Positions 5,950-41,151 of a stretch of 64,000 bases of DNA are shown here, piece after piece. This DNA comes from Candidatus Eiseniibacteriota bacterium (lineage in GTDB: Bacteria > Eisenbacteria > RBG-16-71-46): the NCBI GenBank assembly GCA_041483195.1, contig JBGPFC010000015.1, positions 1 through 64,000 on the forward strand. The letters are read 5' to 3'. The notes under the pieces were generated by a model that did no database searches, was not told the origin of the DNA, and was given only the letters and a program-made list of their open reading frames with translations. Positions within the stretch are counted from its first letter, which is position 1, and each line of letters opens with the position of its first letter. The position numbers were made by a program, and so were the translations under genes.

Positions 5950-6032
5950 TTTCAATCCGGGTCGCGTGACCCGGCGTGGAGCGGCGCGACGGCGCCGCTG
6001 CGCACGCCGGACGCGGCCCACGGGAGAGTCGC

Positions 6033-12998: not shown

Positions 12999-13121
12999 CC
13001 ACGCCGGGGCGCCGCGGGGAGCGTGGGGGGTGGACAGGTCGGACGCGCCGCCGGCATGATTGCCGCCCGGCGCACGCTGTGCTACTCATCGCGCGCCATC
13101 CAATCGAGGAGCCGCGCACCG

Positions 13122-16691: not shown

Positions 16692-17522
16692 ATGACCGGA
16701 GCCCAGCCGATGCCCGCACCCCACCCGATCGAAGCGCCGCGGCTCGCCGAGGTGAAGGATCAGGAGCGCGCGTGGCAGAACGCCACCGGCTGGACCTACC
16801 AGGAGCGCGCCTGGTCGCGCGCCGGGACGCGGCTCGTGCTCGAGCGCCAGTTCGAGCGCATCGGAGGCGCGCTCGCGCCTGAGCCCGCCGACCGCGTCCT
16901 CGAGCTGGGCTGCGGCGTGGGTCATCTGATCGCATGGCTCGGCCGCCATGCGCCGGCGCGCTACCTGGGCGTCGATCTATCGCTCACCACGGTGCGGGCG
17001 GCGCGCGATGCGAATTCCGCGCAGCGCTTCTCCGCCGCCGACGCGGAACGCCTGCCGTTTCGCGACGCGAGCTTCGATCGCGTCGCGTGCAACGGCTCGG
17101 GGCACCATTTCCTCGATCTGCCGGCCGCGCTGCGCGAGGCCCATCGCGTGCTGAAGCCGGGCGGACGGCTGGTGATGTTCGAGCCGATCGCGACCCCGCT
17201 GGCCAACGCGGTGCGCGGGACCCTGCTCCGCCGCAGCCGCTTCGAATCGCCGGCCGACCTCGCGCACAAGCACGAGTTCAGCCGTGCGATCGTCGAGCGC
17301 ACGCTGAGCGAGGCCGGGTTCCGCGAGGTGTCGAGCCGCTTCCACGATTTTCTGGCGTATCCGCTCTCGGGAATGTACATCGGGCTGCCCTGGAGCGGCT
17401 CGCGGGCGGTGATGGGGAGCCTCGCCGCCATCGAGGGCGCCCTGGCGAGGCTGACGCCGCTGCGGCCGCTGTTCGATCGGGTCGCGTGGCGGCTGCTGGT
17501 CGTGGCGACCCGGCCGCGATGA
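16692..17522 (+). CDS. Class I SAM-dependent methyltransferase
   Basis: VLELGCGVG, GVDLS, DAERLPFRDASFD, RVLKPGG. Confidence 0.9.
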   Translation: MTGAQPMPAPHPIEAPRLAEVKDQERAWQNATGWTYQERAWSRAGTRLVLERQFERIGGALAPEPADRVLELGCGVGHLIAWLGRHAPARYLGVDLSLTTVRAARDANSAQRFSAADAERLPFRDASFDRVACNGSGHHFLDLPAALREAHRVLKPGGRLVMFEPIATPLANAVRGTLLRRSRFESPADLAHKHEFSRAIVERTLSEAGFREVSSRFHDFLAYPLSGMYIGLPWSGSRAVMGSLAAIEGALARLTPLRPLFDRVAWRLLVVATRPR

Positions 17523-19123
17523 AGGGACGCCTCGCGCTGTGGACGCTGCTGATTCCACTCACCTATCTGCCGCTCTACCTGATGGGGACGCGCCCCGGGC
17601 CCGCCGCGTTCCTGCTGCTCGCGGCTGCGGTGGCGCTCGCGGCGCTCGCGGTGCTGTTCGTGACCCGCACCACGGTGCTCGACCGGATCGAGCCGGCGAT
17701 CGGGCGGCGCGCCCGCCCGACGATCGCGATCGCGATCGTCGCGTACGTCGCGATCGCGGTGCGCGTCGCCCACGCGCGGCTCGTGACGTTCCGCACCTAC
17801 GACCAGGCCGCGCGATTCAGCCAGTGCTGCTGGTCGCTGCTGCACGGTCACGGGTTCGCGAACGCCGCGCAGGCCGTGGATGGAACGCTCGGCCGGCACG
17901 CCGGCATGCATTTCTCGCCGACGCTGTTCCTGTGCGTGCCGTTCTACGCGATCGCGCCCGGCCCGCTGATGCTGCTCGCGATCCAGGCGCTGGCGGTGGC
18001 GCTCACCGTGGTTCCGCTCTACCACCTGCTACGGCGCGACAACCGCGCGAGCGTCGCGCTCGTGCTCTCGCTCGCCGCGCTCGCGATCCCGAGCTTCGGG
18101 TGGGCGGGCGTTCGTGATTTCCACGACGCGAATTTCCTGCCGCCGCTGCTGATCACCGCGGTGTGGGCGATCGAGGCGCGACGGCCCGCGATCCTCGCGA
18201 TCGCGGCGCTGGGCGCGCTCGGCCTGCGCGAGGATCTGGGCATCACGCTGGTGCTGCTCGGGGCATGGGCCCTGTTGCGGGGAGCCGGCGCACGGATCGC
18301 GCTCGGCCTCGCAGCGCTCGGTGCGGCGTGGATGATCGTCGTGATCAAGTTGGTGATGCCGCGCTTCGGGCCGGCCGGGTCGTGGATCGATGCCACGGGA
18401 TCGTTCGCCGACGCGCTGGGCCAATGGGGCGCGACGCCGGGGGCGGCCGCCCGAGCCATGCTCTCGCACCCGATCGCCTTCGCGCACGCGCTCTTCAACG
18501 GGCAGAGCATCCGCTACCTCTACGATCTGCTGAGCCCGCTGCTGATGCTCCCGCCGTTCGGCGATCCGATCTTCCTGGTCGGCATGCCGGGGCTCTCGGT
18601 CCTTCTGCTCTCGCGGCTCGGATTCATGCGCTTCGCGGCGCAGTCCCATTCCGTGGTGCCGCTCACGTTCTTCGCGCTCGCCGCGTTGCGCACCGCGACC
18701 CGCACCATTTCTCACGCACCGCTCGCGCGGCGCCCGGCCCACGGCCTCGCGCTCGGAACGGTCATGCTGTGCGGCGCGCTCCCCGCGCTTCCGCTCTCCT
18801 CCGGCGATTTCCCGTACCCGGTGCCGCCGCTCGCGGCGGCGCGCGCGGCGTGCGAGCTGATTCCCGAGGGCGCGGCGGTCTACGCGCCGATCTCGTTCTA
18901 CCCGACGCTCGGAGACCGTGAACGCTTCGGCTGCTGGGAGCACCTCGGCGAGCGGGGGCGCGAGCCGGAGGTGCGCGGGAGCTACGACTACATCGTGCTG
19001 TGGCCCGACGCCGATCCGGCCGCCGAGCCGCACGACCGGCCGCTGGCGGATTCGCTCGCCACCGACCCGCGCTTCCGGGCGGTCGCGGGATACGATCCGC
19101 TGCGCGTCTTCGTGCGGAGGTGA
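17519..19123 (+). CDS. DUF2079 (GT-C-like) membrane protein
   Basis: TYD, HFSP, LLAIQAL, DFH, LRED motifs; multiple TM helices. Confidence 0.82.
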   Translation: MKGRLALWTLLIPLTYLPLYLMGTRPGPAAFLLLAAAVALAALAVLFVTRTTVLDRIEPAIGRRARPTIAIAIVAYVAIAVRVAHARLVTFRTYDQAARFSQCCWSLLHGHGFANAAQAVDGTLGRHAGMHFSPTLFLCVPFYAIAPGPLMLLAIQALAVALTVVPLYHLLRRDNRASVALVLSLAALAIPSFGWAGVRDFHDANFLPPLLITAVWAIEARRPAILAIAALGALGLREDLGITLVLLGAWALLRGAGARIALGLAALGAAWMIVVIKLVMPRFGPAGSWIDATGSFADALGQWGATPGAAARAMLSHPIAFAHALFNGQSIRYLYDLLSPLLMLPPFGDPIFLVGMPGLSVLLLSRLGFMRFAAQSHSVVPLTFFALAALRTATRTISHAPLARRPAHGLALGTVMLCGALPALPLSSGDFPYPVPPLAAARAACELIPEGAAVYAPISFYPTLGDRERFGCWEHLGERGREPEVRGSYDYIVLWPDADPAAEPHDRPLADSLATDPRFRAVAGYDPLRVFVRR

Positions 19124-21875: not shown

Positions 21876-23579
21876 TCACGGCGCCGTCGCGGGCGAGCCG
21901 TCCAGCCGGAACACTCGAATGACCGGCCCGCGCCGCAGCCAGCGCACGGGGCGGAACTCCGCGGCCAGCGGCGCTTCGCGTTCGAGCGCGAGATAGTACG
22001 CGAGCCCGCTCGAATCCCCGCGCGCGGCGCGTGCCTGCTGGAGGTGCACGGCGTCCTCACTCACGATCGCCCAGCGGAATCCATCCCGCCGGTACTCGGC
22101 GGGCGACCGCGCGGAGTCTCCCATGGCGGTGCTCCACAGGTAATAGGCCGGCCTGCGCGGATGTTCGAGCTGGAACCGGTAGTACTCGGCGTAAACCGCG
22201 CTGTGGCCGGCGCCGGCCAGTCCGCGGCCGACCTCGGCGAGCCGCTCCTCGAGGCGCGCGCGATTCTCCGAGAGTGGGGGGCTCGCGCTGTTCCAGAAGC
22301 GCGTCATGTCGATCACCACACGGTCGTCTGGCGCGGCGTGGGACTCGAACCAGCGCTTCGCCTCGATGCGGGTGTCGTCGCGCGTCATCGTGAGATCGGT
22401 CTCGACCAGCTCGAGCGCGCTTGGCAGACACAGCGCGAGCACGCACGCCGGCACCGCCCACGCGTGCGCGGATTCGCCGAGCCGGACGCGCGCGAGCAGC
22501 TCGGACGCGCCGCGCGCCACCAGCAGCATGGCGACCGGGACCAGCGGGATGGCATAGCGGTCGTTGAGGACGCTCACGCGGCTCGCGGCCAGCACGTAAG
22601 CTGCGGCGAAGGCCAGCAGCAGCACGTCGGCGCGCCGCCGCCGGACCAGCGCGAGGCCGGCGCCCAGCGCAGCGGCCACCGCGAGCGGCACGTGGAGCGC
22701 CGGCAGCAGGCACCGATAGTAAAAGGCCACGATCCCCTCGGGGATGCCCTGCGTGACGCCCGCGAGCCGGCCCTCCGCCTTGGCGGCCATCCAGCTGAGG
22801 TCGGCGCGGAACGTGCGGAAATCCAGCACGACGTATGGGCACAGCACCAGGAACGTGGCGGCGGCGAGGCCCGCCGCGAGCAGCCCGTGCCGCAGCCAGC
22901 GGGCCCCACCCGCGGGCCGGGGATCGAGCGCGCGGTAGAGCACCGCGATCGCGAGCGGCACGCCCAGCAGCGCGGCGTGATATTGGGCCGACATGCCGAT
23001 CCCGGCCGCGATCGCGCCAACGTAGAGATCGCGCGGCGCTCCTTCCTTCGCCACGCGCAGCGCCATCCAGAGCCCGAAGACCGTGAAGGCGGTCATCGCC
23101 GTCACGGGATGGGCGAGGTGTGAGTAGTGTGCGTGCATCGCGTTGAGCGCGAGCCCCGCCGCCGCGGCCACGCCGACCGGGACCGAATACGCCGCCCTCC
23201 CCAGCGCGAACGCCAGCCACACCGTCCACGTCCCCAGCGCCACGCTCTCGAAGCGCGCGAGCAGGTAGAAGGCGGACGGATCGCGGAAGTAGGCCGCGGC
23301 GAATGCCTGCTTTCCGCGCCACCAGCCCGCCGCGAATCCGGCCACGTAGAGCGCGGCGTACGCCGCGAGCGCGAGGTAGAGGAGCAGCGTGCCGGGCCAG
23401 ATGAAGAAGTGGGGATTCAGGTCGCCGCTCCCCATCCGCAGCGCGCGCAGCACGACTTGAGGCTCGTCGTGAAAGTAGAAGAGCCACGGCAGCCCGTAGT
23501 GAATGCCCCAGATCCGCGCGAGCACCGCGACCGCGAGCACCGCGACGAGCGCGCGCGGGATCGCGCGCGGAGCGGTCAC
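21876..23579 (-). CDS. GT39/ArnT-like (GT-C) membrane glycosyltransferase
   Basis: RIWGIHYGLP..FHDEP, LNPHFF, multiple TM helices, DTRIEAKRW soluble domain; GTGA overlap. Confidence 0.85.
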   Translation of the reverse strand: MTAPRAIPRALVAVLAVAVLARIWGIHYGLPWLFYFHDEPQVVLRALRMGSGDLNPHFFIWPGTLLLYLALAAYAALYVAGFAAGWWRGKQAFAAAYFRDPSAFYLLARFESVALGTWTVWLAFALGRAAYSVPVGVAAAAGLALNAMHAHYSHLAHPVTAMTAFTVFGLWMALRVAKEGAPRDLYVGAIAAGIGMSAQYHAALLGVPLAIAVLYRALDPRPAGGARWLRHGLLAAGLAAATFLVLCPYVVLDFRTFRADLSWMAAKAEGRLAGVTQGIPEGIVAFYYRCLLPALHVPLAVAAALGAGLALVRRRRADVLLLAFAAAYVLAASRVSVLNDRYAIPLVPVAMLLVARGASELLARVRLGESAHAWAVPACVLALCLPSALELVETDLTMTRDDTRIEAKRWFESHAAPDDRVVIDMTRFWNSASPPLSENRARLEERLAEVGRGLAGAGHSAVYAEYYRFQLEHPRRPAYYLWSTAMGDSARSPAEYRRDGFRWAIVSEDAVHLQQARAARGDSSGLAYYLALEREAPLAAEFRPVRWLRRGPVIRVFRLDGSPATAP

Positions 23580-24817
23580 CGCGGGGCCCGGGCCCAGCGC
23601 GACAGCACCCACGCCCAGCCGAACCCGGCCATCCACAGCAGGCAGGGCTCGACCGCCAGCCGATACCGCATGGCGGAATAGAAGAAGGCGCCGCCGAGGG
23701 AGTAGGTCGCGAGCGCGCCGGCCAGCGGCCACAGCGCCGGGACCTTCGCGATGCGGGCCAGCGCCATCAGCGCGCCGGCGAAGATGATAACGCTCGCGAG
23801 TCCCTGAGCCGCCCGGCTCCACGGATTGACGTACAGCTGCGTGTGGGTCTCCGGCCACAGCGCGAACAGAATCCCGAGCTCGCCGACGTAGAGCTGCGCC
23901 GCCCGGCCGGGATTTTCGCGCATGAAGCGCAAGCCTTCGTGGTAGAGGAATCGTTCGCGGGCGGGCTCGTTCGGGAGCCGATCGACGGTCGCGGCCGTCC
24001 TCGAGTCGAACTTCGGCATGATGCGCGTCTCGGTCCTGGCCCCCGGGCTGTTGCCCAGCCAGAACGCGCGCCCGCCGCCCGTGGCGACGAAGTACCACTG
24101 CCCGAACACCCGATGATTGCGCAGCGTCCACGGCGCCAGCGTCAGCGCGAAGGCGGCCGCGCACACCAGCGCCGGCCCGAGCCAGGCGCGCCGCTCGCGT
24201 CGCATGGCGAGCGCGAGCCCGGCCGCGAGTCCCGGCACCATCATCACCGCGTTGGGGCGGATCAGCGTCGCGACGCCGAACCACAGGCCACCCGCGGCCC
24301 AGCGCCACAGTCCGCCGCGCCGCCAGGCCGCGAACAGCGCGCCGAAGGCGAGCGCCGTCGCCACCAGCAGGGTGTTCTCCGAGTACTGCGTCGACGGGAG
24401 AAACGCCAGCACCGGGTGGAGCGCGGCGAAGCCGCCGCAAATCAGTCCGGCCGTGCGTCCGAAGGCCCGCGCCCCGATCCCGCCCATCAGTCCCACCGCG
24501 AGCGCGCCGAGCACGGCCTCCGTGAGGCGCAGCGCCAGCAGATTCCGGCCGAACACCGCGTACACCGCGGCGATCAGGGTGGGGTAGCCAGGGGCCCGCA
24601 GCGTCTGCAGCCCATAGCTACCGTGCTCGACCAGCGAGCGGCCGATCTGCTCGTACTCGACCCCGTCCGCCCACAGGATGCGCGGCGGCGAGATCGCCAC
24701 GAACGCGAGGCGTGCGAGCAGCGCGACGGCCACGATCCCGATCCACGGGGCGCGCGCCCTCCAGTCGGCCGGCGCGGGACGCGTGGCCGGTGCGTCGCCC
24801 GCCTCGACTCCGCTCAT
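23576..24817 (-). CDS. GT39/ArnT-like (GT-C) membrane glycosyltransferase
   Basis: DGVEY, RAPGYP, SE, LIRP, PWTLRN, FWLGN, RYR motifs. Confidence 0.85.
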   Translation of the reverse strand: MSGVEAGDAPATRPAPADWRARAPWIGIVAVALLARLAFVAISPPRILWADGVEYEQIGRSLVEHGSYGLQTLRAPGYPTLIAAVYAVFGRNLLALRLTEAVLGALAVGLMGGIGARAFGRTAGLICGGFAALHPVLAFLPSTQYSENTLLVATALAFGALFAAWRRGGLWRWAAGGLWFGVATLIRPNAVMMVPGLAAGLALAMRRERRAWLGPALVCAAAFALTLAPWTLRNHRVFGQWYFVATGGGRAFWLGNSPGARTETRIMPKFDSRTAATVDRLPNEPARERFLYHEGLRFMRENPGRAAQLYVGELGILFALWPETHTQLYVNPWSRAAQGLASVIIFAGALMALARIAKVPALWPLAGALATYSLGGAFFYSAMRYRLAVEPCLLWMAGFGWAWVLSRWARAPR

Positions 24818-25056
24818 CGCCACGAGATCGATCTTCGGAAACGCGCCACGAGCTCCACCCCCGATCGAGCGGCGCGCGGCTCATCGGACGCATTCCCGGA
24901 ACAGCCGGCAGCCCCGGCCTCCCCCTCGCACCGCGCGCGGCCGCATAACCTACACCGGGAACCGGTCGGTTCCCAGTGCCGACCGGCGCGGCAAGGCCGA
25001 CCGGGCCGCCGCGGCGGTAGTCGAGCGGGGCCCGAACAATGTAACCTGCGCCCTTC

Positions 25057-26900: not shown

Positions 26901-27161
26901 CTAGCCCGTTCCCCGCACCCGATCCACCAGCGCGCCGATCGAGCGCACGCTCTCGAAGTGGTCGGGCAGCACCTCGGCGTCGGGAATCGCGATGCCGAAG
27001 TGCTCCTCGCAGAACGTCACGATCTTCAGGATCGATAGCGAATCGAGCAGGCCGCGCTCGATGAGCGATTCTTCGGGCTTCAGGTCCTGGAGGTCACGAT
27101 CGTAGAACACTTCCGACAGCAGGAACTCACGGACCGCGGCTTCGGTGGCGCTCGGGCTCAT
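26901..27161 (-). CDS. Acyl/peptidyl carrier protein (PltL/PigG/DltC-like)
   Basis: 86 aa acidic protein; GLLDSL phosphopantetheine site; EEHFGIAIPDAEVLPDHFES. Confidence 0.92.
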   Translation of the reverse strand: MSPSATEAAVREFLLSEVFYDRDLQDLKPEESLIERGLLDSLSILKIVTFCEEHFGIAIPDAEVLPDHFESVRSIGALVDRVRGTG

Positions 27162-27186
27162 CGGGAGGATCTCCCAAGGTTTGGAA

Positions 27187-28767
27187 TCACGACGGGCGCG
27201 GCTCGCTGAGCGCGCGCCGATCGATCTTGCCGCTGCTGGTGCGCGGCAGCTCGCCGCGAAACTCGATGGTCTCCGGTACCATGTAGCGCGGCAGCGTCTC
27301 CGCGCAGTGGCGCTTGACGGTGCCTTCGTCGAGCGTGGCGCCGCGTTTCGTCACGACCACCGCGTGGAGCCGGTGCGTGATCTCCTCGTCCGGCACCGCC
27401 ACCACCACCACCTCGCTCACGGCGGGATGGCGCTGCAGCACCGTCTCGATCTCGCCCAGCTCGACGCGATAGCCGCGCGTCTTCACCTGATGGTCGCGCC
27501 GTCCGAGAAATTCGAGCTGGCCGTCGGGGCGTTGCCGCACCAGGTCGCCGGTGCGATAGGCGAGGTCTCGGATTCCGGGCGCGATCTCGACCGGCTGGAG
27601 CGCGAGCGCGGTGCGCTCGGGGCGGCCCCAGTAGCCGTGCATCACCGAAGCGCCGCGCACCCACAGCTCGCCGACGCCGCCCTCCGGCACCGGCCGCATC
27701 GATTCGTCGAGCACCAGCGTCTCGTCATACGGGCACGCGCGGCCGATCGGCAGCGGCGTGTCGTCGGCGGGCGGGCCCTCGACCTCGACCCAGGTGCACA
27801 CGTTGCTCTCGGTCGGCCCGTAGAGGTTCGCGAAGCGCGCCTGCGGCGCGAGCCGCATGATCTCGCGCAGGTACTTGACCGGGAACACCTCGCCCGCGAA
27901 CAGCAGCACCCGCAGCGCGGAGAGGTCGAGATCGGCGAGGCCGCCGCGCGTGAGCATGAGCACCAGCGTGCTGGGGGTGGCGTACCACACCGTGAGCCGG
28001 TCCGCCGTCCACTGCTTCGCGACCGCCGCCGGGAACGAAGCGATGCGCGGCGAGAGCGGATACACGGCGGCTCCGGCGCGCGCGCCCGAGAACAGGTCGA
28101 AGGTCGAGAGGTCGAAGTGGAACGGCGCGTGATTCGCGAGCCGGTCCTCGTGAGTGACCGCGAACGTGTCGCCGGCCCACTCGACGAACGCGAGGGCATT
28201 GCGGTGCGAGAGCATCACGCCCTTGGGCTCGCCGGTCGAGCCGGAGGTGTAGAGGATGTACGCCAGATCGTCCGTGAGCGCGGGGCTCGGGTAGCCGGCT
28301 TCGGTCTCGCTCAGGACCTCGGCCCAGGCCACGCCCGGCAACCCGGCCACGGGGGCGGGGGCGGCGGGCTTCTCGTCGGCAAACCACAGCGCGCGCATCG
28401 GCGCGCCGGAGGCGAACGCCTCGTCGAGCGCCGCGGCGCGCGCGGCGACGGTGACGAGCCCCGCCACCGCGCAGTCGCGGGCGATGTAGGCGAGGCGCGC
28501 GGGCGGGGCCGCGGGATCGACCGGCACGTAGGCCGCTCCCACCTTCATCACGCCGTAGAGCGCGACGATCGCCTCGGGGGAGCGCGGTAGCCACAGCGCC
28601 ACGCGGTCGCCGCGGCGCACGCCGTGCGCGGCGAGCGAATGCGCGAAACGGTTCGAGAGGGCCTCGAGCGCCGCGTAGTCGAGGCGGCGGCCGTCCATCA
28701 CCACCGCCGGGCGCCCGCCGAAACGCGCAGCGGATGCGCTCACCAGTTGCGGCAGCAGCGTGGCCAC
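27187..28767 (-). CDS. Stand-alone amino-acid adenylation enzyme, L-proline--[PCP] ligase-like
   Basis: AYILYTSGSTGEPKG, FDLS, NLYGPTE, YRTGD, GRRDHQVK, PRTSSGKIDR; specificity residues read by eye as DLFYLALVCK. Confidence 0.88.
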   Translation of the reverse strand: MATLLPQLVSASAARFGGRPAVVMDGRRLDYAALEALSNRFAHSLAAHGVRRGDRVALWLPRSPEAIVALYGVMKVGAAYVPVDPAAPPARLAYIARDCAVAGLVTVAARAAALDEAFASGAPMRALWFADEKPAAPAPVAGLPGVAWAEVLSETEAGYPSPALTDDLAYILYTSGSTGEPKGVMLSHRNALAFVEWAGDTFAVTHEDRLANHAPFHFDLSTFDLFSGARAGAAVYPLSPRIASFPAAVAKQWTADRLTVWYATPSTLVLMLTRGGLADLDLSALRVLLFAGEVFPVKYLREIMRLAPQARFANLYGPTESNVCTWVEVEGPPADDTPLPIGRACPYDETLVLDESMRPVPEGGVGELWVRGASVMHGYWGRPERTALALQPVEIAPGIRDLAYRTGDLVRQRPDGQLEFLGRRDHQVKTRGYRVELGEIETVLQRHPAVSEVVVVAVPDEEITHRLHAVVVTKRGATLDEGTVKRHCAETLPRYMVPETIEFRGELPRTSSGKIDRRALSEPRPS

Positions 28768-28769
28768 GA

Positions 28770-29921
28770 CTACAGCCCCAGGCAGCGCGCGATGATCTTG
28801 CGCTGCATCTCCGAGGTGCCGGAGTAGAGCGTGCCCGACAGCGCGTCGCGCACCTCCCGCTCGATCGGGTACTCCTTCATGTAGCCGTAGCCGCCGTGAA
28901 TCTGGAGCGCGTCGAGCGCGGCCCGGGTGTGCGCCTCGCTCACGAACAGCTTCGCCATCGCCGCTTCGAGCACCGCGCTCTTGCCCTGCTGCTTGAGCAC
29001 GCCCACGCGGTAGAGCAGGTATCGCCCGGCCTCGATCGACACCTTCATGTCGGCGATGCGCGAGGCGACCGATTCGAACTTCGCGATCGGCTGGCCGAAC
29101 TGCCGCCGCTGGCGCGCGTAAGCGACGCAATCCTCGAGCAGGCGCTCCATCGCGCCGAGGTGCCCTGCGAAGATGCACGCGCGTTCCCATTCCATCGCGG
29201 CGTTGAAGATCGCCATGCCCGCGCCCTCCGGCCCCAGCCGCTGCGCGGCGGATACCACGCAGCCGTCGAACGTCACCTCGCCCATCGGGGAGGTGCGCAG
29301 CCCCATCTTCTCGATCGGCTTGCTGAAGCTGAGGCCTGGGGTTCCCCGCGGGACGAGGAACGCGGTGAGCGCCGGCGCCCTGGTTTCCGCCGATCGGTCG
29401 AGGTATGCGAAGGCGACCGCGAGCTCCGCCACCGGCGCGTTGGTCGAGAAGGTCTTGGTGCCGTCGAGGCGATAGCCGTCGCCCACGCGCACCGCGCGGC
29501 TCGAGAGCGAGAACACGTCGGAACCGGCGCCGGGCTCCGTGATGGCGTGCGCTGCGATCGCCGCGCCGGACACCAGTCGCGGCAGCCACGCGCGTTTCTG
29601 CTCTTCGGTGCCGAAATGGAGGATGGGCATCTGGCACGCCCACATCTGCGCGTTGAGGCTGAACACCAGCCCGTTGTCGCGGCAGCCGCGCCCCAGCGCT
29701 TCCATCGCGATGGTGGTGGTGAGCAGGTCCTGGCCCTGCCCGCCGTACTCGGGCGGGATCGGCAGCCCGAGCAATCCGAACTCCGCGCACTTCTGCCAGC
29801 ACTCGCGCGGGAAGCAGGCGTCGCGATCGCGCCCCTCGAGATCGTGATTCAGCTCCGCGCGCGCGAACTCCAGCACGGCGTCGTACAACTCGCGCTGTTC
29901 GGGGCTCAGTTCGAGGTCCAC
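28770..29921 (-). CDS. Acyl-CoA dehydrogenase family, L-prolyl-PCP dehydrogenase-like
   Basis: AHAITEPGAGSD, KMGLRTSP, MEWERACIFA, QIHGGYGY, TLYSGTSEMQR; GGAGG RBS with GTG start. Confidence 0.88.
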   Translation of the reverse strand: MDLELSPEQRELYDAVLEFARAELNHDLEGRDRDACFPRECWQKCAEFGLLGLPIPPEYGGQGQDLLTTTIAMEALGRGCRDNGLVFSLNAQMWACQMPILHFGTEEQKRAWLPRLVSGAAIAAHAITEPGAGSDVFSLSSRAVRVGDGYRLDGTKTFSTNAPVAELAVAFAYLDRSAETRAPALTAFLVPRGTPGLSFSKPIEKMGLRTSPMGEVTFDGCVVSAAQRLGPEGAGMAIFNAAMEWERACIFAGHLGAMERLLEDCVAYARQRRQFGQPIAKFESVASRIADMKVSIEAGRYLLYRVGVLKQQGKSAVLEAAMAKLFVSEAHTRAALDALQIHGGYGYMKEYPIEREVRDALSGTLYSGTSEMQRKIIARCLGL

Positions 29922-30868
29922 GCCGCCTCCGTTGCCCCGCCCTGCGCCGCCGCGCTCGTGCCCGCCGGTCGGTCGAGCGCTTCGATCCAGCGCAGCGTTC
30001 GATCCAGCGTCTCGCGCGAGCGCGTCATCTCGAGGAATCCGTGCACGCGGCCCGGCCACACCTCGATCTCGAATCGCCGCCGGGAGGCGGGATCGAGGTC
30101 GGCGAACACGGTGCGCTCGGCCACCTGAAAGGTCTGGTACTCGGCGTCGTCGTCGCCATAGAGGAAGAGCGCGCGCGCCCGCGAGCGCACCAGCGCCGCG
30201 AAGTGCTCCATGAAGCTCGGCGCGAGCGGCGGGGCCTCCGGCTCGGCCGGGCCGCGCACCGTCTTCCTCGCGACGCGCGACACCACGGTGGCCATGTAGC
30301 GCCAGCGCTCCGCGCTCCCCAGCGACTGCCAGTTCTCGCGGTTGCCGAGCGCGCGCACCAGGTGCGCCCAGCTCTTGCGGTCGGCATCCACGCGGGTCTG
30401 ATCCTCGAGCGGCATCACCGGGGCGGCGATGAACACCATTCCCGCGATCGCGTCGGCCTCGTCGGCGAACGCGGCGAGCGCGGTGCGCGCATCGAAGCAG
30501 CTTCCGACCAGCACGAATCGGGTCTGCCCGTGGCGTTCGCGCAATTCGCGCAGCACGGCGACGGCGTCATCGCGATAGGGCCGGTTGGGATCCAGGAACC
30601 CGCTCGCGCCCTCGCTGTCGCCCGCGCCGTGATAGTCGAAACGGAACGCTGCGAAGCCGCGCGCCGCGAGGCGCCGCGCGCCCTCCACCCACATGCGATT
30701 GCGGTGGGAGCGGGGGCGCGTGAAGAGCACCACGCACGGCCCTGGCGCCCCGGCGCCGGGAGCGGGAGGGGTGAAGATGCCGAACAGCCGCCCGAGCGGG
30801 GTCGGAATCACGACCGGACGCTCGGCGCGCGCGCGATCCACGTCGCTCGCCGTCTCAAGCCAGGGCAT
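29906..30868 (-). CDS. Alpha/beta-fold hydrolase (exosortase-associated 'hydrolase 1'-like)
   Basis: HRNRMWV..ARRLAARG..FRFDYHGAGDSEG; elbow GSCFD; C-terminal HGF. Confidence 0.8.
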   Translation of the reverse strand: MPWLETASDVDRARAERPVVIPTPLGRLFGIFTPPAPGAGAPGPCVVLFTRPRSHRNRMWVEGARRLAARGFAAFRFDYHGAGDSEGASGFLDPNRPYRDDAVAVLRELRERHGQTRFVLVGSCFDARTALAAFADEADAIAGMVFIAAPVMPLEDQTRVDADRKSWAHLVRALGNRENWQSLGSAERWRYMATVVSRVARKTVRGPAEPEAPPLAPSFMEHFAALVRSRARALFLYGDDDAEYQTFQVAERTVFADLDPASRRRFEIEVWPGRVHGFLEMTRSRETLDRTLRWIEALDRPAGTSAAAQGGATEAAWTSN

Positions 30869-31781
30869 CGAGCCAATTCCTCATGCGCAGGGCGAGCGCG
30901 GGACATTCCCAGGCCGGATTCGAGATGAAGTGCCAGCCCGGCTCTTCGTTCACGCACATCGTATCGACCGTCGCGCCCCGCTGCTCGAGCGCCGTCGCGA
31001 GCGCGGCGTGGGCGGGCGAAAGCCGCGGCCGCGCCGCGATCTGCGCGATCAGGGTGGGGCCGCGGAACGACTCGAGCATGCTCCCCAGATCGGCGTCGCG
31101 CGCGGAATCGAAGACGGTTCGGTGCAGGTAGTACCCGTGCACGTCCACCCGGCCCGCCTCCGCGAGCCGCTCGAGCAACTGGTCAACGGTGGCGTCGGGG
31201 GCGTGTCCGGCCGCGACCTGCGAGAACAGCATGCCGCGGAGCAGCCCGCGAAAATAGTCGGGTGGCCGGTGCACCGGCTCCCAGAGGGCGAGCGCCGCGG
31301 TGCGCGCGCCGCGCGCGATCGCCTCGGCCGCCACCAGCGCGCCGAAGCGCACGCCGAGCCACACGACGCTCTCGGCCCCGGAGCGGCGCCGCGCCTCGGC
31401 AGCGGCGCCGAGCGCATCGTCGGCGAGGCTCGCGAGCGTCACCGCCGCGAAGTCGCCGCCCGAGTCGCCGTGACCGCGCGCGTGGTAACGAAAAACGGGA
31501 AAGCCGGCCGCCGCGAGCGCGCGCGCACATAGCACTTCGGCGCGATAGGCGGTGATCTGCTCGACGCCCAGTCCGTGGCAGTGAACCACGACCGGTGCGC
31601 CGGGCCGGGCGCGACCGGGCGCGTGATGGACCGCGTAGAGCGGCCGGCCTTCGCACTCGAAGAACAGCGGAATTTCGTCGGGGATCGCGGTGCCTGGGGA
31701 CGAGGCGGCAGTGGACCCGGGGGAGAGCAGAGCGGGCTCCTGTGGCGGGTGCGCGGGGGGTAAATGGGTCGGAGGACGCAT
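30855..31781 (-). CDS. Alpha/beta-fold hydrolase (exosortase-associated 'hydrolase 2'-like)
   Basis: ARALAAAG..FRY..RGHGDSGGD; elbow GVRFGA; LWEPV; VDVHGY. Confidence 0.8.
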   Translation of the reverse strand: MRPPTHLPPAHPPQEPALLSPGSTAASSPGTAIPDEIPLFFECEGRPLYAVHHAPGRARPGAPVVVHCHGLGVEQITAYRAEVLCARALAAAGFPVFRYHARGHGDSGGDFAAVTLASLADDALGAAAEARRRSGAESVVWLGVRFGALVAAEAIARGARTAALALWEPVHRPPDYFRGLLRGMLFSQVAAGHAPDATVDQLLERLAEAGRVDVHGYYLHRTVFDSARDADLGSMLESFRGPTLIAQIAARPRLSPAHAALATALEQRGATVDTMCVNEEPGWHFISNPAWECPALALRMRNWLDALA

Positions 31782-31881
31782 CAATCGTAGACGGGGCCGC
31801 GATGGACTGTCAACGAACGGACCGGCCGCGGCGCGCGCCCCCGCCGGCCGGGCGGGCGCGCGGCCCGGGCAGTCGCCGGGG

Positions 31882-33099
31882 TCACCCGGCGGGCGGTTCG
31901 CGCTCGATGAAGGCCGCGTGGAGCGCGCGCACCGCGGCCGCGCAGTGATCCGCGCTCACGCGCAGGATGAGCGCCGTGGGCGTGGTGCGCAGCGCGATCA
32001 GGGCGACACCCGCGCGCTCGAGCGCCTCCTCGGCGCGCACCGCCTCGCGCGCGCCGAGCCCGAGGCCCACCAGCGACACGAAGGCCGCGCCGTGCTCGGC
32101 GGCCAGCTTCCACTCGCCTCCCGGGCCCTTCAGGGCGCGAAAGTGTTCCGCGAGGGAAACGACATCGGCCTGCTCGCCGATCCAGACGATCACCCCGTGC
32201 GTGTCGCCAGACTGTTCATGAGCGACCAGCTCGAGCTCGGGGTGAGCCTCGCCCACCGATGCGATCAGATCGCGCGCCTCGCCGCGGCCGCCGGCGTTGC
32301 CCTCCGCGATCGCGATCGAGCAGCCGGTGCGGTGCGCGACCGCTTCGATCCGTGCGCCCTCCATGTCGTCCTCCGTGATCGTGGTGCCTGGCGCTTCGTC
32401 GAACGACGATCGCACCGTGAGCGGCACGTGGTGGGAGGCGGCCAGGTCCACGCAGCGTGCGTGGAGCACCTGTCCGCCCAGATGCGCGAGCGTCGAGCAC
32501 GCGCGGTAAGAAATGCGGGGAATCACGCGCGCCGCCGGAACCACGCGCGGATCCGCGGTGAGCACCCCGGGCACGTCGGTGCGGATCTCGCAGCGGCCGG
32601 GGCCGAGCGCCGAGGCGAGCGCGACCGCCGTCGTGTCGGATCCGCCGCGGCCGAGCGTCGTGATCTCCCGGGTCTCGGGGTTCACGCCCTGGAATCCCGC
32701 GACGATCACCACCCGTCCGCGGTCGAGCTCCTGGCGAATGCGCTCGGGGCGCACCGCGACGATCCGCGCCGCGTTGTGCGTGCCGTCGGTGAGAATGCCG
32801 CTCTGGGAGCCCGTGAACGAGATCGCCTCGACCCCGAGATCGTGGAGCGCCATCGCGAGCAGCGCCATCGAGACGCGCTCGCCGGTGGTGAGCAGCATGT
32901 CGAGCTCGCGGCGGCTGGGATGCGGGGACACGCGGTGCGCGAGCGAGAGCAGCTCGTCGGTGGTCTGACCCATCGCCGACACCACGACCACCACGCGATT
33001 CCCCGCGCGGCGCGCGTCCGCCACGCTGCGCGCGACCGCGCGAATCCGATCGGGGCCATCGACCGAGGTGCCGCCGAACTTTTGCACGAGGAGTGGCAT
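31882..33099 (-). CDS. lysC: Aspartate kinase
   Basis: [44 protein letters not shown]. Confidence 0.95.
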
Positions 33100-34658: not shown

Positions 34659-35444
34659 ATGAACGCCGCGGCGCCGGCCGTGACCGCCGTGGTCGTGACC
34701 CGCGACCGGCCGCGGCTGCTTCGGGACGCGCTCGCCAGCATCGCGCGCCAGACCCGTTCCCCGCTCGAGGTGCGAATCGGGAACGACGGCGCGAGCGCGG
34801 TCGACGAGGCGCTCGACGCGCTCGGCGGGCTCCCGTTCAGCGTGACGACCGTGCACGATGGCCAGGCGGCGCGTGCGCGCAATCGGGTGGCACACGGCGC
34901 GCGAGGCGAGGCGCTGGCGTTTCTCGACGACGATGACCGCTGGCTGCCCGACCACCTCGAGGGATTGGCGGGAGCGCTGCGCGATCCGGCGGTGGACGTC
35001 GCGTACCGCGACTGCGCGATCGTGCGTGAGCGGGTGGACGACGCGGGCGCGCGCCTCGATCTGGATCGCCGCGTGATCGCGCGTGACTGGGATCCTGAGA
35101 TCATGCGGCGTGACGATTTCATTCCACCCAGCAGCTGCGCGGTGCGCGCCGCGTTCTTCGAGCGGCTCGGGGGATTCGATACGGCCTTTCGCTATTCCGA
35201 GGACTGGGACTTCCTGCTGCGCGCCGCGCGCGAGTCGATTCCGCGGCGGGTGCCGGGCGTGACGGTCGAGGTGCGCATGCGCGATTCGGGAAATGCGTCA
35301 GCGGTCCTCTCGGAGGAGCGGCTCGCGTGCCTCGTGCGGCTGGCCGCGCGTCACGGCCTGCCGCCGCTCGTGCCGCGCACCTTCTGGGAGGTCGCGGAGC
35401 GGGTGGGCGAAGGGGGCGGCGCGCCGTGGCGCGATCGCTCCTGA
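34659..35444 (+). CDS. Glycosyltransferase family 2
   Basis: TRDRP, NDG, ARN, AFLDDDD, GGFD, EDWDF. Confidence 0.9.
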   Translation: MNAAAPAVTAVVVTRDRPRLLRDALASIARQTRSPLEVRIGNDGASAVDEALDALGGLPFSVTTVHDGQAARARNRVAHGARGEALAFLDDDDRWLPDHLEGLAGALRDPAVDVAYRDCAIVRERVDDAGARLDLDRRVIARDWDPEIMRRDDFIPPSSCAVRAAFFERLGGFDTAFRYSEDWDFLLRAARESIPRRVPGVTVEVRMRDSGNASAVLSEERLACLVRLAARHGLPPLVPRTFWEVAERVGEGGGAPWRDRS

Positions 35445-36379: not shown

Positions 36380-37861
36380 TTACGGCGTGGCGAGGGTGTC
36401 GGGAACCCAGATCCGATCCGGCCGCGTGCGCGCGCCCGTCACCGTGAAGAAGCTCGACCCGTCGCGCATCACGCTCCCCTGCGGCCGGTAGGCGCGCCGG
36501 ATCGGATCGATCAGCCAGGCGGGATCGGGCGAGTCCAGCACGATCACGCTCCACGCCCGCCTCGCGATCGAATCCCGCCAGGCCAGCATCAGGCTCGACT
36601 CGATGACCCCCGCCCGACCCGGAACCGCGTCGGTGAACGCCATCTCGTGGACGTGCATCGGACGCCCGGCGAGCGCGAGCAGGTAGGGATGACTCGGCAC
36701 CAGCACCGCGCCGGGCATCGCCCGCAGGCGCCGCACCGCGTCATCGCCGGCGGCGCGGTCGGCCCGGCTCGGGATCTGCGCGCGCGGATCCCACGCCAGC
36801 AACGCGAGCTGAGCGATGGCGGCCAGCGCGATGGCGGAGCCCCCGCGCCGGCGCGCTGCAGCGGGGGCTCCCCGCGCCCGGTCGATCGCGGCGTGGAGGC
36901 CGAGGCCGAACAGCAGCGCGATGCTCGCGGTGGCGGTGAGCAGCACGTTCGTGAACCCGCCGCGGTAGGAGCGGAGCGCGGCCGAGCTCCCGATCATGCC
37001 GAGCGCGAGCAGCCCGAAGAACGCGCGGCCACCGCGGCGCGGTGCGCCGCCCGGCGAGAAGTAGAGCGCCCCGATCGCGAGCGCGAGCCCCAACGGGAGC
37101 AGATCGTGGCCGAGGGAGGCCACCAGTCGTCCGGGTTCGGGCCGATGCGCCCTGGCGATGTCGAGCACGTAGTGCAGAAACCAGCCGTGCGATGCGCGAT
37201 CCAGCCACGCCGTGCTCGCGCCGAGCAGCACGACCAGCGTGCCCGCGCACCACGCGAACCGCCTGCGGTCCCACCCCAGCTGCCCGATCACGAGCGGCGC
37301 GATCGCGACCACGCCCGACTGCTTGGTGAGCGCCGCCAGCGCGAAGCACGCGCCGGCCACCGCGCCGCGCGAGCGCGGACCGCCATCCGCGCGCAACGCA
37401 GCGACCCCGGCGAGCAGCAGGGCGAGGTAGAGCGCGTCGGGCCGCGCCACGTCGAGGAACGCGCCTGCTGCGTGGAACGAGGCGGCGAACAGGCCCGCCG
37501 CCAGGGCGGCGGCGAACGCGTCACGCGTCTCGCGCCACACGATCGCGGCGATCAGCGCGAGACCGCAGAGCGCGGCGAGCGCCGACACCAGCCGCAGCGC
37601 CAGGAACCCCGGGCCGAGCAGGTGGGCCATGCCCGCGGCGAGCGCGAAGTAGAGCGGCGGATAGTTGACTGGGATGAACGCGAGCGAGGGAGGAACGTAG
37701 AGCGGCAGCCCGGCGGAGAGTCGCTGGACCTGGTGCAGGCTCAGGCCTTCGAGCCACTCGAGCTCGTACGGGTAACCGATGCGCAGCGCGACGACGGCGG
37801 CGACCAGCGCCACGTGCAGCCCGGCCAGCGCGAGCAGCACGCGGCGCATCGGACGCGGCAC
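36380..37861 (-). CDS. GT39/ArnT-like (GT-C) membrane protein
   Basis: YPYELEWLEG, YPPLY, LRLVS, ARPD, TKQ motifs; multiple TM helices. Confidence 0.82.
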   Translation of the reverse strand: MPRPMRRVLLALAGLHVALVAAVVALRIGYPYELEWLEGLSLHQVQRLSAGLPLYVPPSLAFIPVNYPPLYFALAAGMAHLLGPGFLALRLVSALAALCGLALIAAIVWRETRDAFAAALAAGLFAASFHAAGAFLDVARPDALYLALLLAGVAALRADGGPRSRGAVAGACFALAALTKQSGVVAIAPLVIGQLGWDRRRFAWCAGTLVVLLGASTAWLDRASHGWFLHYVLDIARAHRPEPGRLVASLGHDLLPLGLALAIGALYFSPGGAPRRGGRAFFGLLALGMIGSSAALRSYRGGFTNVLLTATASIALLFGLGLHAAIDRARGAPAAARRRGGSAIALAAIAQLALLAWDPRAQIPSRADRAAGDDAVRRLRAMPGAVLVPSHPYLLALAGRPMHVHEMAFTDAVPGRAGVIESSLMLAWRDSIARRAWSVIVLDSPDPAWLIDPIRRAYRPQGSVMRDGSSFFTVTGARTRPDRIWVPDTLATP

Positions 37862-39426: not shown

Positions 39427-41151
39427 ATGCCGATCGTCCGTTTCGCTCTCATGGCCAGCCTGCTGCTCGCGACCCCGGCGGGCGCGCGCGCCCTTCGGTC
39501 CTCGCGTCCCGCTCCGCCGCGCACCGCGAGCCTGGGGTTCGCGCCCGGCGTGGTGCTGGTCGTCCAGCGCGACGATCTGCCGCTGCGGCTCGCGGAGGGC
39601 GAGCCGGTCGAGGCCGGCGAGCCGTCGCTCGGCTCGGCGCTCGCGAGGCTCGGCATCGCGCGCGCGCGCAGGGTCGGTCGTCCGGCGGGCAAGTGGGCCG
39701 CGAGCATTCTCGCGCTCGAGAGCGATCGCGCCGACTTCGATCCGCGCGCGGCCGCCGACGCGCTGCGCGCGACCGGCCGCTTCCGCGCGGTGTGCCCCAA
39801 CTATCGCTTCCATGTGTTCGCGACGCTGCCCAACGACACGTACCTCGACAATCAGTGGTCGATTCAGGACCCGGGTGACGTCGATGTGGACCTTCCCGAG
39901 GCGTGGGATCTCGAGAAGGGCGGCCCCGCGACGGTGATCGGCATCATGGACACGGGCGTAGATCTCGGGCACCCCGATCTCGCGAGCAAGATCTGGACGA
40001 ATCCCGGCGAGGTGCCGGGCGACCACGTGGACAACGACGGCAACGGGTTCATCGACGACCTCCACGGCTGGGACTTCGGGCTCGGGAACGCCGATCCGAA
40101 TCCCGCGCCGGTGTTCGACGCATACGGCATCGACGAGGGCTTTCACGGGACGTTCGTCGCGGGGATTGCGGCCGCCGCCACCAACAACGCGGAAGGCATC
40201 GCCGGCGCGGGATGGAACTGCCGGATCCTGCCGCTCAAGGTCACGGATGACGTCGGCGACATCACCGCCGAGGCGATCGCGGCGGCTTTCGAGTACGCGG
40301 CCGACCAGCACGTGAAGGTGCTCAACATGAGCTTCGGCGGCCCGGGCGATCCGGGCGTGCCCGAGTTCTTCCAGGCGCTGGTGGACATGGCGGACTCGGC
40401 GGGCGTGCTGTGCGTCGCCGCGGCGGGGAACGACGGCAGCGACACGCCTACCTATCCGGCCGCGTGCGATCGCGTCTTGGCGGTGGCCGCGACCGACTTC
40501 AACGATCAGCGCGCGGACTTTTCGAACTGGGGCGCGTGGGTGGACGTGGGCGCGCCCGGCGCATCGATGTTCTCATGCCTGTGCCGAAACTACGTGATCG
40601 ACGACTTCAGTCAGATCTTCTACCTGTACTTGTTCGGCTGGGACGGCGAGACCCCGTACATGTTCGGCGACGGCACCTCGTTCGCCGCCCCGCTCGCGTC
40701 CGGGGTGTGCGGTCTGGTCCGGAATCACTTCCCCGCGTTTTCGCCGGAGCAGACCATCGCGCGGATCTTGAGCACGGGCGACTCGCTGGCGTACAACCTG
40801 CCGATCGGCCCCAAGCTGAACGCGTATCGAGCGGTGAGCGCGCCCATCACCGCGGTGGGCGATGCGGCGGCCGCGCCGCTCGCGTTCGCGCGGATCGCGC
40901 CCAATCCGTTCCGCGCCTCCACCGTGCTGCGGTTCACGCTTCCCGCGGCCGGCCCCGCCCGGCTCACGATCTTCGACTGCGCGGGACGGCGAGTGCGCGC
41001 GCTCGCGGACGGCGACCTCGAGGCGGGGCCGCACGCGATTCCGTGGGACGGCGCTTCGGATGCCGGCGCGCCGCTCGGGAGCGGAATCTACTTCGCGCAG
41101 CTCGAGAGTCGCGGCGGCATCCTGCGCCAGAAGCTGGTGCGATTGCGCTGA
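39427..41151 (+). CDS. Secreted S8 (subtilisin-like) serine peptidase with C-terminal FlgD-Ig/sorting-type domain
   Basis: Catalytic motifs IMDTG, HGTFVAG, AAGN, GTSFAAP; tail PNPF...IFD..GRRVR.L...WDG...SGIYF. Confidence 0.93.
   Translation: MPIVRFALMASLLLATPAGARALRSSRPAPPRTASLGFAPGVVLVVQRDDLPLRLAEGEPVEAGEPSLGSALARLGIARARRVGRPAGKWAASILALESDRADFDPRAAADALRATGRFRAVCPNYRFHVFATLPNDTYLDNQWSIQDPGDVDVDLPEAWDLEKGGPATVIGIMDTGVDLGHPDLASKIWTNPGEVPGDHVDNDGNGFIDDLHGWDFGLGNADPNPAPVFDAYGIDEGFHGTFVAGIAAAATNNAEGIAGAGWNCRILPLKVTDDVGDITAEAIAAAFEYAADQHVKVLNMSFGGPGDPGVPEFFQALVDMADSAGVLCVAAAGNDGSDTPTYPAACDRVLAVAATDFNDQRADFSNWGAWVDVGAPGASMFSCLCRNYVIDDFSQIFYLYLFGWDGETPYMFGDGTSFAAPLASGVCGLVRNHFPAFSPEQTIARILSTGDSLAYNLPIGPKLNAYRAVSAPITAVGDAAAAPLAFARIAPNPFRASTVLRFTLPAAGPARLTIFDCAGRRVRALADGDLEAGPHAIPWDGASDAGAPLGSGIYFAQLESRGGILRQKLVRLR

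Follow-up and report, generated by a model that had tools for sequence, protein, structure and literature searches.

A five-gene proline-type carrier cassette with a Cys/Arg alpha/beta-hydrolase pair in Candidatus Eiseniibacteriota: a candidate system for glycan decoration

The first 64,000 nucleotides of contig JBGPFC010000015.1 (C15:1-64000, here called the window) from assembly GCA_041483195.1 of Candidatus Eiseniibacteriota, an uncultured sediment bacterium, contain a cassette of five minus-strand genes coding for two proteins of the alpha/beta-hydrolase type (hyd2 and hyd1), a flavin dehydrogenase of the acyl-CoA dehydrogenase (ACAD) fold, a stand-alone adenylation enzyme and a small carrier protein. 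As judged from sequence comparisons, this operon most likely loads proline onto the carrier, oxidises it there and hands it to a two-protein transferase, and its purpose is probably the decoration of a cell-surface glycan, not the synthesis of an antibiotic. A self-contained acyl-carrier module with glycan decoration is the best explanation we can offer for the five genes, and we consider its chances about even. The genes are as follows, hyd1 and hyd2 being names used in this text only.

30855-31781 (ATG start) or up to 31784 (TTG start), minus strand: hyd2, 308 or 309 aa, Arg-elbow alpha/beta pseudo-hydrolase, proposed non-catalytic partner of hyd1
29906-30868, minus strand: hyd1, 320 aa, Cys-Asp-His alpha/beta hydrolase, proposed acyl-S-enzyme transferase or thioesterase
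28770-29921, minus strand: ACAD, 383 aa, flavin dehydrogenase of the prolyl-S-carrier-protein type with ACAD fold
27187-28767, minus strand: adenylation enzyme, 526 aa, stand-alone, predicted to be specific for L-proline
26901-27161, minus strand: carrier protein, 86 aa, stand-alone, with Ser41 in the motif LLDSL

An earlier note on this DNA had described five tightly coupled genes, which was confirmed at these coordinates, with all overlaps or gaps at or below 25 nt. The hyd2 and hyd1 genes overlap by 14 nt and the hyd1 and ACAD genes by 16 nt, the GTG start of the adenylation gene lies 2 nt past the TAG stop of the ACAD gene, and a gap of 25 nt separates the adenylation and carrier genes. 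Because contigs from four other sediment metagenome runs cover the cassette stretch without any indels, the gene arrangement is not an assembly artefact; one of these contigs, of 3212 bases, shows no difference over positions 28867-32078.

Predicted activation of proline and loading of the carrier

The adenylation enzyme matched the amino-acid adenylation family AA-adenyl-dom (TIGR01733) with 393.9 bits, above the cut-off of 317.4 bits, and its best single-domain match in the PDB was the proline ligase PltF (6o6e) with 345.1 bits, followed by the next single-domain entry with 264.2 bits. A search with only the pocket stretch gave 108.8 bits for PltF, 82.9 bits for 7thn, which is another solved proline ligase, and 59.6 bits for DltA. 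The motifs from which the pocket had originally been read (FDLSTF, TVWYAT, LLFAGE, NLYGPTE and SNVCT) are all present and yield the code DLFYLALVCK at residues 219, 220, 223, 262, 289, 291, 315, 323, 324 and 514, the tenth position being the conserved Lys in SGKIDR. At the nine aligned positions, the sequence is DLFYLALVC in this enzyme, compared with DLLYLALVC for PltF and DLFYIAWVC for 7thn; the pocket is thus identical to that of PltF at eight of nine positions, and the only differing residue, a Phe at the third position, also occurs in 7thn. As a stand-alone enzyme with a proline pocket, the protein qualifies as an L-proline--[L-prolyl-carrier protein] ligase of the PltF/PigI type.

The same code was found in all 15 rows from cassette-type loci, representing 13 distinct loci (two records are present twice), and also in a locus containing the triad of ligase, carrier and dehydrogenase without the hydrolase pair (L116). 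Ligases located beside exosortase-type pairs (among loci L050-L110, e.g., L052, L063, L074, L088 and L097) carry the codes DASTATMRSK or DYSATSMRSK instead, and the Arg in their pockets fits an acidic amino acid as the substrate. A full-text literature search found no publication mentioning the adenylation specificity code. The carrier protein matched the PP-binding family with 28 bits, and its matches in the PDB include 6cxt_A (44.1 bits), PltL (30.9 bits) and PigG (25.0 bits). Taking these comparisons together, the adenylation enzyme very probably loads L-proline.

Probable oxidation of the carrier-bound prolyl group

Among NCBIfam models, the dehydrogenase matched PigA (423.9 bits) and RedW (410.1 bits) best, and the third-ranking family scored 322.7 bits. 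Its top matches in the PDB were the prolyl-acyl carrier protein (ACP) dehydrogenase 4irn with 418.9 bits, which we take to be AnaB, 6cxt_B with 314.8 bits, presumably from the complex of Bmp3 with the carrier Bmp1, and the PigA-type prolyl-peptidyl carrier protein (PCP) dehydrogenase 5zw0 with 290.7 bits. The motifs WERACIFA and TLYSGTSEMQR, named in the earlier note, are present (WERACIFA from residue 245, LYSGTSEMQR from residue 365), and the latter places a Ser at the position of the catalytic Glu of ACADs (YSGTSE). Among homologues of at least 52% identity, YSGTS[ED][IM]QR was conserved in 25 of 25 sequences in which the region was covered (one row is cut short) and EWER in 23 of 25. Four generic ACADs encoded at the same loci show [GF]EGTSEIQR (GGGATEVML in the most distant one) and GGR instead of EWER; because they have neither motif, the two motifs are valid as diagnostic features. 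With Ser in place of Glu, the EWER motif and the genes for a proline ligase and a carrier next to it, the enzyme belongs to the broad group of L-prolyl-[peptidyl-carrier protein] dehydrogenases. The proposal that the triad is of the proline type is therefore supported by the pocket code, the structural matches to PltF and prolyl-carrier dehydrogenases and the relatives of the carrier, and this half of the cassette, with its proposed loading and oxidation steps, fits the PltF/PltL/PltE class in its pocket, its motifs and its solved relatives.

Several points speak against a firm assignment of the enzyme as a pyrrole-forming dehydrogenase. Because its scores are below both curated equivalog cut-offs (410.1 vs. 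650 bits for RedW, NF045652; 423.9 vs. 500 bits for PigA, NF053553), we did not file it as PigA or RedW. Moreover, its nearest solved relative, 4irn, is reported to stop at the pyrroline level: in the account of PMC3252866, the product of AnaB is (S)-pyrroline-5-carboxyl-ACP, formed by a two-electron oxidation. We considered whether the closeness to 4irn speaks for a two-electron reaction and rejected this argument as non-discriminating: an ACAD homologue from an Acidimicrobiia genome, which is encoded beside a pyrrole-type halogenase (see below), also matches 4irn best (441.5 bits), so that nearness to this structure does not settle the oxidation state. We regard oxidation of the prolyl group on the carrier as highly likely, and slightly favour pyrrole over pyrroline as the product.

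A cysteine enzyme with an Arg-elbow partner

The earlier note had described the remaining two genes as a pair of hydrolases of the type found in exosortase and exopolysaccharide loci. Both proteins match Hydrolase_4 (hyd1 with 49.3 bits, hyd2 with 44.7 bits), and both are distant relatives of the exosortase-A-associated pair; yet, with 54.6 bits for hyd1 against TIGR03100 (hydr1_PEP, cut-off 168.45) and 92.9 bits for hyd2 against TIGR03101 (hydr2_PEP, cut-off 202.75), they stay far below the thresholds of these families. The description as two hydrolases also had to be replaced by that of one Cys-Asp-His enzyme and a dead Arg-elbow partner. In an alignment of hyd1 with the esterase 9pjb, C124 falls on the catalytic Ser (GSCFDA vs. 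GLSMGG) and H276 is aligned as well; C124, D241 and H276 are invariant in all 11 hyd1 sequences compared, one of which is only 24% identical. In hyd2 (numbered from the TTG at 31784), R146 falls on the catalytic Ser of 9pir (GVRFG vs. GFSLG) and is invariant in 12 of 12 relatives, and no conserved His is present. Because Arg146 occupies the nucleophile position and a conserved His is missing, hyd2 would be non-catalytic, leaving hyd1 as the only one of the two that can be catalytic.

To follow this feature beyond close relatives, the hyd1 alignment was used in a scan across phyla with one genome per species, which confirmed 521 relatives among 602 pattern matches; 80 loci from many phyla were analysed. 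One of the two scan patterns held the Cys, and the distant matches lack that pattern and were recruited via the other one. The Cys elbow was present in 60 of 62 hyd1-type open reading frames (ORFs), the other two being truncated, and the Arg elbow in 59 of 77 hyd2-type ORFs. The remaining 18 consist of ten with Ser, which are lone ordinary hydrolases without a partner, four with Cys, which are hyd1 copies scored by the wrong model, one with Lys, one weak match with Ile and two truncated frames. An adjacent pair occurred in 52 of the 80 loci, always in the order hyd2-hyd1, and in eight further lineages (L067, L069, L078, L084, L092, L098, L099 and L109) both are fused to a protein of about 600 aa with the Arg elbow in the N-terminal and the Cys elbow in the C-terminal part. 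With hyd2 and hyd1 adjacent or fused beside carrier genes, the cassette falls into a wider group of Cys-elbow/Arg-elbow pairs around TIGR03100 and TIGR03101, for which there is no published definition; its offloading half is thus part of this wider pair and outside the two models themselves.

Structure prediction of the hyd1-hyd2 complex gave an ipSAE of 0.92 in three runs, compared to 0.00 for the best of three controls. This mark is reached by 116 of 157 solved complexes and by 2 of 215 mismatched pairs, counts which are only rough for user-supplied alignments. The runs shared at least 70% of their contacts, with a partner pLDDT of 85, and the predicted interface involves the GxGDS loops conserved in the two proteins (hyd1 81-84, hyd2 104-113) and hyd1 residues 278-284 just past His276. 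No similar complex appears to have been solved so far. The two proteins therefore probably form a heterodimer according to these models, and an acyl-enzyme at Cys124 within this heterodimer is likely.

The AlphaFold model of hyd1 (pLDDT 81.9) shows a generic alpha/beta fold, and a fold search with it returned only generic monomeric esterases, lipases and lactonases (TM 0.44-0.57) and no specific relative. These ordinary hydrolases are one argument for an alternative in which the pair is a stand-alone thioesterase, the operon making free pyrrole-2-carboxylate or pyrroline carboxylate that is released and perhaps exported; the chemistry of a Cys hydrolase could also allow plain hydrolysis of the thioester, which weighs against a transferase. 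On the other hand, a Cys nucleophile together with an obligatory dead partner, conserved across phyla, exceeds what hydrolysis needs, and the conserved five genes include no exporter. Further arguments come from the gene neighbourhoods described below. The function of the exosortase-A-associated hydrolases 1 and 2 is uncharacterised in the literature that we found: the only published mention of a member that our search found was Bcam1334, a predicted hydrolase in a Burkholderia exopolysaccharide cluster, and the main text of the 2006 PEP-CTERM/EpsH paper mentions neither the hydrolase nor the ligase, decarboxylase or acyl carrier. Wider searches of the exosortase literature likewise yielded nothing of relevance.

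Absence of an assembly line

If the oxidised prolyl-carrier served as a starter unit for a polyketide synthase (PKS) or non-ribosomal peptide synthetase (NRPS) located elsewhere, the cassette would follow the known use of such triads, as exemplified by AnaB and AnaE in anatoxin synthesis (PMC3252866). None of the 46 further proteins that were scanned in the window matched a PKS, NRPS or halogenase, in agreement with what had been noted before. In the whole genome (4.17 Mb in 93 contigs, 96.8% complete, about 71% G+C), there were no matches to condensation domains and none to the Trp_halogenase family; the lack of a halogenase counts against our main explanation. The ketosynthase matches of the genome comprise one FabF-like gene, two weak matches and one 1967-aa KS-AT-KR-DH protein. 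The latter, an iterative-looking PKS at C16:16021-22871 (L005), adjoins a DUF1702 gene and is the one candidate acceptor that speaks for a starter unit; it sits among housekeeping genes, with no carrier-loading genes nearby.

The distribution of these genes was compared over 41 related genomes, a set which includes this genome (G000) and one unpublished genome (G026). Strong hyd2 matches occurred in 11 of them, all of one family. Condensation domains were found in two of the 41 genomes and in only one of the 11 with the hydrolase pair, and an orthologue of the PKS in two of these 11, namely this genome and G003 of the same genus. With no condensation domains in this genome and the PKS in two of 11, the cassettes do not consistently occur with a PKS or NRPS elsewhere, and we rejected such an acceptor on its distribution. 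A role as starter unit, as in the anatoxin pathway, is therefore very improbable, and the view that no assembly line is available to take the carrier-bound unit is supported by the gene content. The pyoluteorin and prodigiosin pathways likewise use such triads for their starter units.

Gene neighbourhood and the acceptor

A family scan of the window proteins revealed the following glycan-related features.

3482-16140, plus strand: glycan cluster, a candidate acceptor pathway putatively associated with the cassette, with genes for a priming phosphoglycosyl transferase, a GT-C protein, a UDP-sugar dehydrogenase, glycosyltransferases of families GT4 and GT2, a GDP-mannose enzyme and a GlmU-like protein
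4243-5949, 21876-23612, 23576-24823 and 36380-37861: PMT_2/GT-C genes by profile matches
21876-24823, minus strand: two PMT_2 (GT-C) membrane glycosyltransferases (33.3 and 48.2 bits), 2 kb beyond the end of the carrier gene, given as context only
34659-35444: GT2 gene by profile match

Two PMT_2 genes, one GT2 gene and one GT87/PMT_2 gene thus lie within 6 kb of the cassette, and the region is indeed as dense in glycosyltransferases as previously described, with the cluster, four PMT_2/GT-C genes and the GT2 gene. As a separate observation, one 35-kb stretch contains the four PMT_2 matches (one also matching GT87) and a gene for a DUF2079 membrane protein (17486-19123, 4243-5949, 21876-24823 and 36380-37861); this abundance of GT-C proteins suggests extensive periplasmic glycosylation from lipid-linked sugars.

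Support for a link with glycans comes from other genomes. In G020 (L027), the cassette and eight orthologues of genes from window positions 3482-12998 face each other head to head; the gene order is the same, identities are 51-78%, and the carrier gene overlaps at its end with a GT2 gene. The glycan cluster lies within about 11 kb of the cassette in G003, G006, G012 and in this window. Across the wider set, 39 pair loci were at least 12 kb long, and 23 of them contained a glycosyltransferase-type match; the same queries matched 19 of 150 20-kb windows drawn at random from this genome and one of seven loci with lone Ser hydrolases. In several loci of Armatimonadota and others, runs of GT4 genes directly follow the pair.

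A contig of an Acidimicrobiia metagenome-assembled genome (JBFHAT010000005.1, L042/L115) carries a sulfated-glycan-type cluster of genes for polysaccharide deacetylases, sulfotransferases, GT4 proteins, a FemAB-like protein, hyd2, hyd1 and a protein with SLH domains. About 8 kb past the pair, the same cluster encodes a flavin halogenase together with an ACAD of the proline type (53% identity) and a proline-type adenylation enzyme whose code is DLFYIAWVCK. The halogenase carries WxWxIP, presumably the halogenase signature, and its PDB matches are 5bva (243.6 bits), 5buk (142.1 bits) and PltA (128.8 bits), the first two of which we take to be the pyrrolyl-carrier halogenases Bmp2 and Mpy16. By its gene content, this cluster gives independent support for the view that, in one other phylum at least, the proline module makes a pyrrole in the setting of a glycan. 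It also gives a hint of a halogenated pyrrole at a locus for a cell-surface glycan.

Other findings weigh against this link. The operon lies outside the glycan cluster, 10.8 kb from its last gene, with galT, glgA and a TRAP permease gene in between. When 11 related loci were compared for genes of the window's glycan region within the fetched flanks, such genes were found in four pair loci (L018, L022, L023 and L027) and in L116, and were absent from the flanks of the other six (L019, L026, L031, L033, L020/L040 and L041), two of which are annotated with housekeeping neighbours such as PNPase, MetRS and KsgA. Including G010 and G024, the cassette stands amid housekeeping genes in about half of the related loci, and the control for the enrichment of glycosyltransferases, taken from one genome, is a rough one.

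The housekeeping neighbours are at the same time an argument for a thioesterase, as is the locus in G016 (L029, C1 at about 2.10 Mb), where an NRPS of two modules (A-PCP, C-A-PCP) lacks a thioesterase domain and is followed by a distant Cys/Arg pair, which so takes the place of a release enzyme. However, the pair in this locus precedes a GT4 gene and a gene for a phosphopantetheinyl transferase, so that even the NRPS locus continues with a glycosyltransferase, and pair loci in general are enriched in such genes. Weighing this with the conserved dead partner, we regard release of the free acid by a thioesterase as unlikely.

An envelope acceptor other than a glycan, i.e., the head group of a membrane lipid or a protein, would follow the logic of the Dlt system or of lipid aminoacylation. 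The carrier's best NCBIfam match is ACP_for_OlsHI, a carrier of an ornithine-lipid pathway (described in PMC12493201), and the exosortase encoded in the genome implies that sorted surface proteins exist. Yet the carrier match (55.4 bits) is far below its cut-off of 130 bits, the sole exosortase match of the genome lies on contig C4 and not on that of the cassette, no DltB- or DltD-named family was found among the 46 further window proteins, and the recurrent neighbours are glycosyltransferases. We consider an acceptor of this kind quite improbable.

On balance, the comparative context, i.e., the head-to-head arrangement in G020, the enrichment of glycosyltransferase genes and the Acidimicrobiia cluster, favours a glycan-linked role as judged from gene neighbourhoods, and we place about half of our expectation on a glycan or glycolipid as the acceptor.

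Conservation and variants of the cassette

The five-gene order is kept in G003, G006, G010, G012, G020 and G024, and in loci L031, L032, L033 and L039, while G009 retains four genes before its contig ends and L035 is cut. It is conserved across one family, which has Ca. Eisenbacteria as its closest named relatives, and also in L041 from a more distant, unclassified bacterium, in which the hyd proteins show 38%, the ACAD 54% and the adenylation enzyme 50% identity. Two variants complicate the picture of a fixed pathway and are further points against it. In G018 (L021), a 371-aa GDSL-family protein occupies the ACAD slot at an unchanged proline code, and because the dehydrogenase is replaced, the prolyl group handed on in this variant would not be oxidised. 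In G008, pair and triad are located on different contigs. The swapped slot in G018 and the split in G008 mean that the parts of the cassette are separable and modular. In G006 (L022/L038, JACRPT010000041.1), the hyd1 frame departs from its homologues about 226 residues in and continues in frame into the ACAD gene, giving an ORF of 850 codons; this is either a frameshift, a fusion or an assembly error.

A paralogous proline triad (ACAD of about 55% identity, codes such as DLLYLALVCK) occurs without the pair in four relatives (L118-L121, from G016, G015, G003 contig 24 and G021). In G015 and G021, a gene for a hexapeptide-repeat acyltransferase directly precedes the carrier gene, and the triad in G021 also has a PMT_2 gene, two GT4 genes and a flippase-type gene around it; the triads of G003 and G016 lie beside genes for GDSL-like proteins.

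Comparison with known systems

The triads PltF/PltL/PltE, PigI/PigG/PigA, RedM/RedO/RedW and CloN4/CloN5/CloN3 consist of the same components as the loading half of the cassette, i.e., a stand-alone adenylation enzyme, a carrier and a dehydrogenase with ACAD fold, and the best solved matches of all three cassette proteins include members of their families. PigI, PltE and the three Red proteins are among the known members of these thiotemplated proline-to-pyrrole triads. In contrast to them, the cassette is without a downstream PKS, NRPS, FabH-like transferase or halogenase, and its host belongs to an uncultured lineage with almost no assembly-line genes. Conversion of a prolyl-ACP is also known from AnaC/AnaD/AnaB of anatoxin-a synthesis, which include the nearest solved relative of the dehydrogenase (4irn); as described in PMC3252866, the product of AnaB feeds the PKS AnaE, a partner for which the cassette has no counterpart.

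The closest functional analogy is provided by CloN1/CloN7 (CouN1/CouN7), which according to the account in PMC11218499 move pyrrolyl-2-carboxyl from a carrier to the 3'-OH of noviose. As in our proposal, a carrier-bound pyrrole acid is transferred to a sugar hydroxyl by a dedicated acyltransferase, a likeness in logic alone: the cassette has a Cys nucleophile, an Arg-elbow partner and no second carrier protein. CloN7 itself is a lone alpha/beta hydrolase that uses Ser as its nucleophile. The exosortase-A-associated pair (TIGR03100/TIGR03101, with ligase TIGR03098, a carrier and a pyridoxal phosphate-dependent decarboxylase) shares the order hyd2-hyd1, the Cys and Arg elbows and the position beside a carrier and an adenylate-forming enzyme, whereas the loading module of the cassette is of the proline type with a dehydrogenase, instead of an Arg-containing pocket with a decarboxylase. 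The Dlt system (DltA/DltC/DltB/DltD) also uses a stand-alone adenylation enzyme and a small carrier for envelope decoration, and DltA is a relative of our enzyme, although the scores against the DltA models (284.5 vs. 476 and 276 vs. 559.85 bits) are below their cut-offs. The cassette differs from it by its proline-type pocket and by a soluble Cys/Arg pair in place of the MBOAT protein DltB and DltD, neither of which was found among the 46 further window proteins.

Other features of the window

The closest protein and DNA relatives of the genome carry the label Candidatus Eisenbacteria. The end of the carrier gene lies 11 nt from that of the convergent TRAP permease gene, and on the other side a gap of 97 nt after the upstream aspartate kinase gene contains the following element.

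31784-31813, minus strand: sigma-70-like promoter match, TTGACA-18-TACGAT

This site agrees with the consensus at 10 of 12 positions, and two such sites were found vs. 0.2 expected from shuffled sequences; it is a consensus match only. If this promoter is used, translation of hyd2 must start below the TTG at 31784, and even the ATG at 31781 appears doubtful.

Two plus-strand genes of the window were recorded as separate observations. The 995-aa protein encoded at 57062-60049 weakly matches PEP-utilising ATP-binding domains in its centre; we considered whether its RedH/PigC-like match (61.5 and 52 bits vs. cut-offs of 1350 and 1300) belongs to a pyrrole pathway and rejected this, since the match is probably due to a shared domain only. 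The gene at 39427-41151 codes for a subtilisin-like S8 protease with a C-terminal type A sorting domain of the type IX secretion system (27 bits vs. a cut-off of 23), because of which the organism probably has such a system.

Proposed mechanism

In the pathway we propose, the adenylation enzyme would activate L-proline and load it onto the phosphopantetheine arm at Ser41 of the carrier, as suggested by the pocket it shares with solved proline ligases. The dehydrogenase would then oxidise the prolyl-S-carrier, either by four electrons to pyrrolyl-2-carboxyl-S-carrier, as PigA, RedW and PltE do, or by two electrons to 1-pyrroline-5-carboxyl-S-carrier, as reported for AnaB. In the predicted heterodimer, Cys124 of hyd1, assisted by Asp241 and His276, may take over the acyl group as a thioester, while the invariant Arg146 at the nucleophile site of hyd2 could serve as a binding site for an anionic group on the acceptor or the carrier arm. 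Finally, a cytoplasmic transfer could place the acyl group on a sugar nucleotide or lipid-linked glycan intermediate, at one of its hydroxyl or amino groups; this step is proposed from gene neighbourhoods, and the intermediate would come from the glycosyltransferase cluster that travels with the cassette. A broader generalisation, according to which Cys/Arg heterodimers constitute an unrecognised class of carrier-protein-dependent acyltransferases decorating surface glycans, with pyrrole-2-carboxyl in this lineage and a halogenated form in some Acidimicrobiia, is a tentative extension that we think somewhat more likely wrong than right.

Implications

To our knowledge, all proline-to-pyrrole carrier triads described so far feed assembly lines for antibiotics and pigments. 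Here, such a triad stands alone, coupled to a widespread and uncharacterised two-protein module that recurs beside polysaccharide genes. New in this analysis are the assignment of a single catalytic hydrolase, the predicted dimer, the fusions and the combination of pair, proline module and halogenase in Acidimicrobiia. If the proposed pathway is true, it would give the orphan hydrolase 1 and hydrolase 2 families a chemistry, namely acyl transfer via a Cys thioester assisted by a dead partner, and it would represent a previously undescribed class of surface-glycan decoration with a proline-derived heteroaromatic acyl group. It would also be a small system of five genes that could be rebuilt in E. 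coli, although the organism itself is uncultured.

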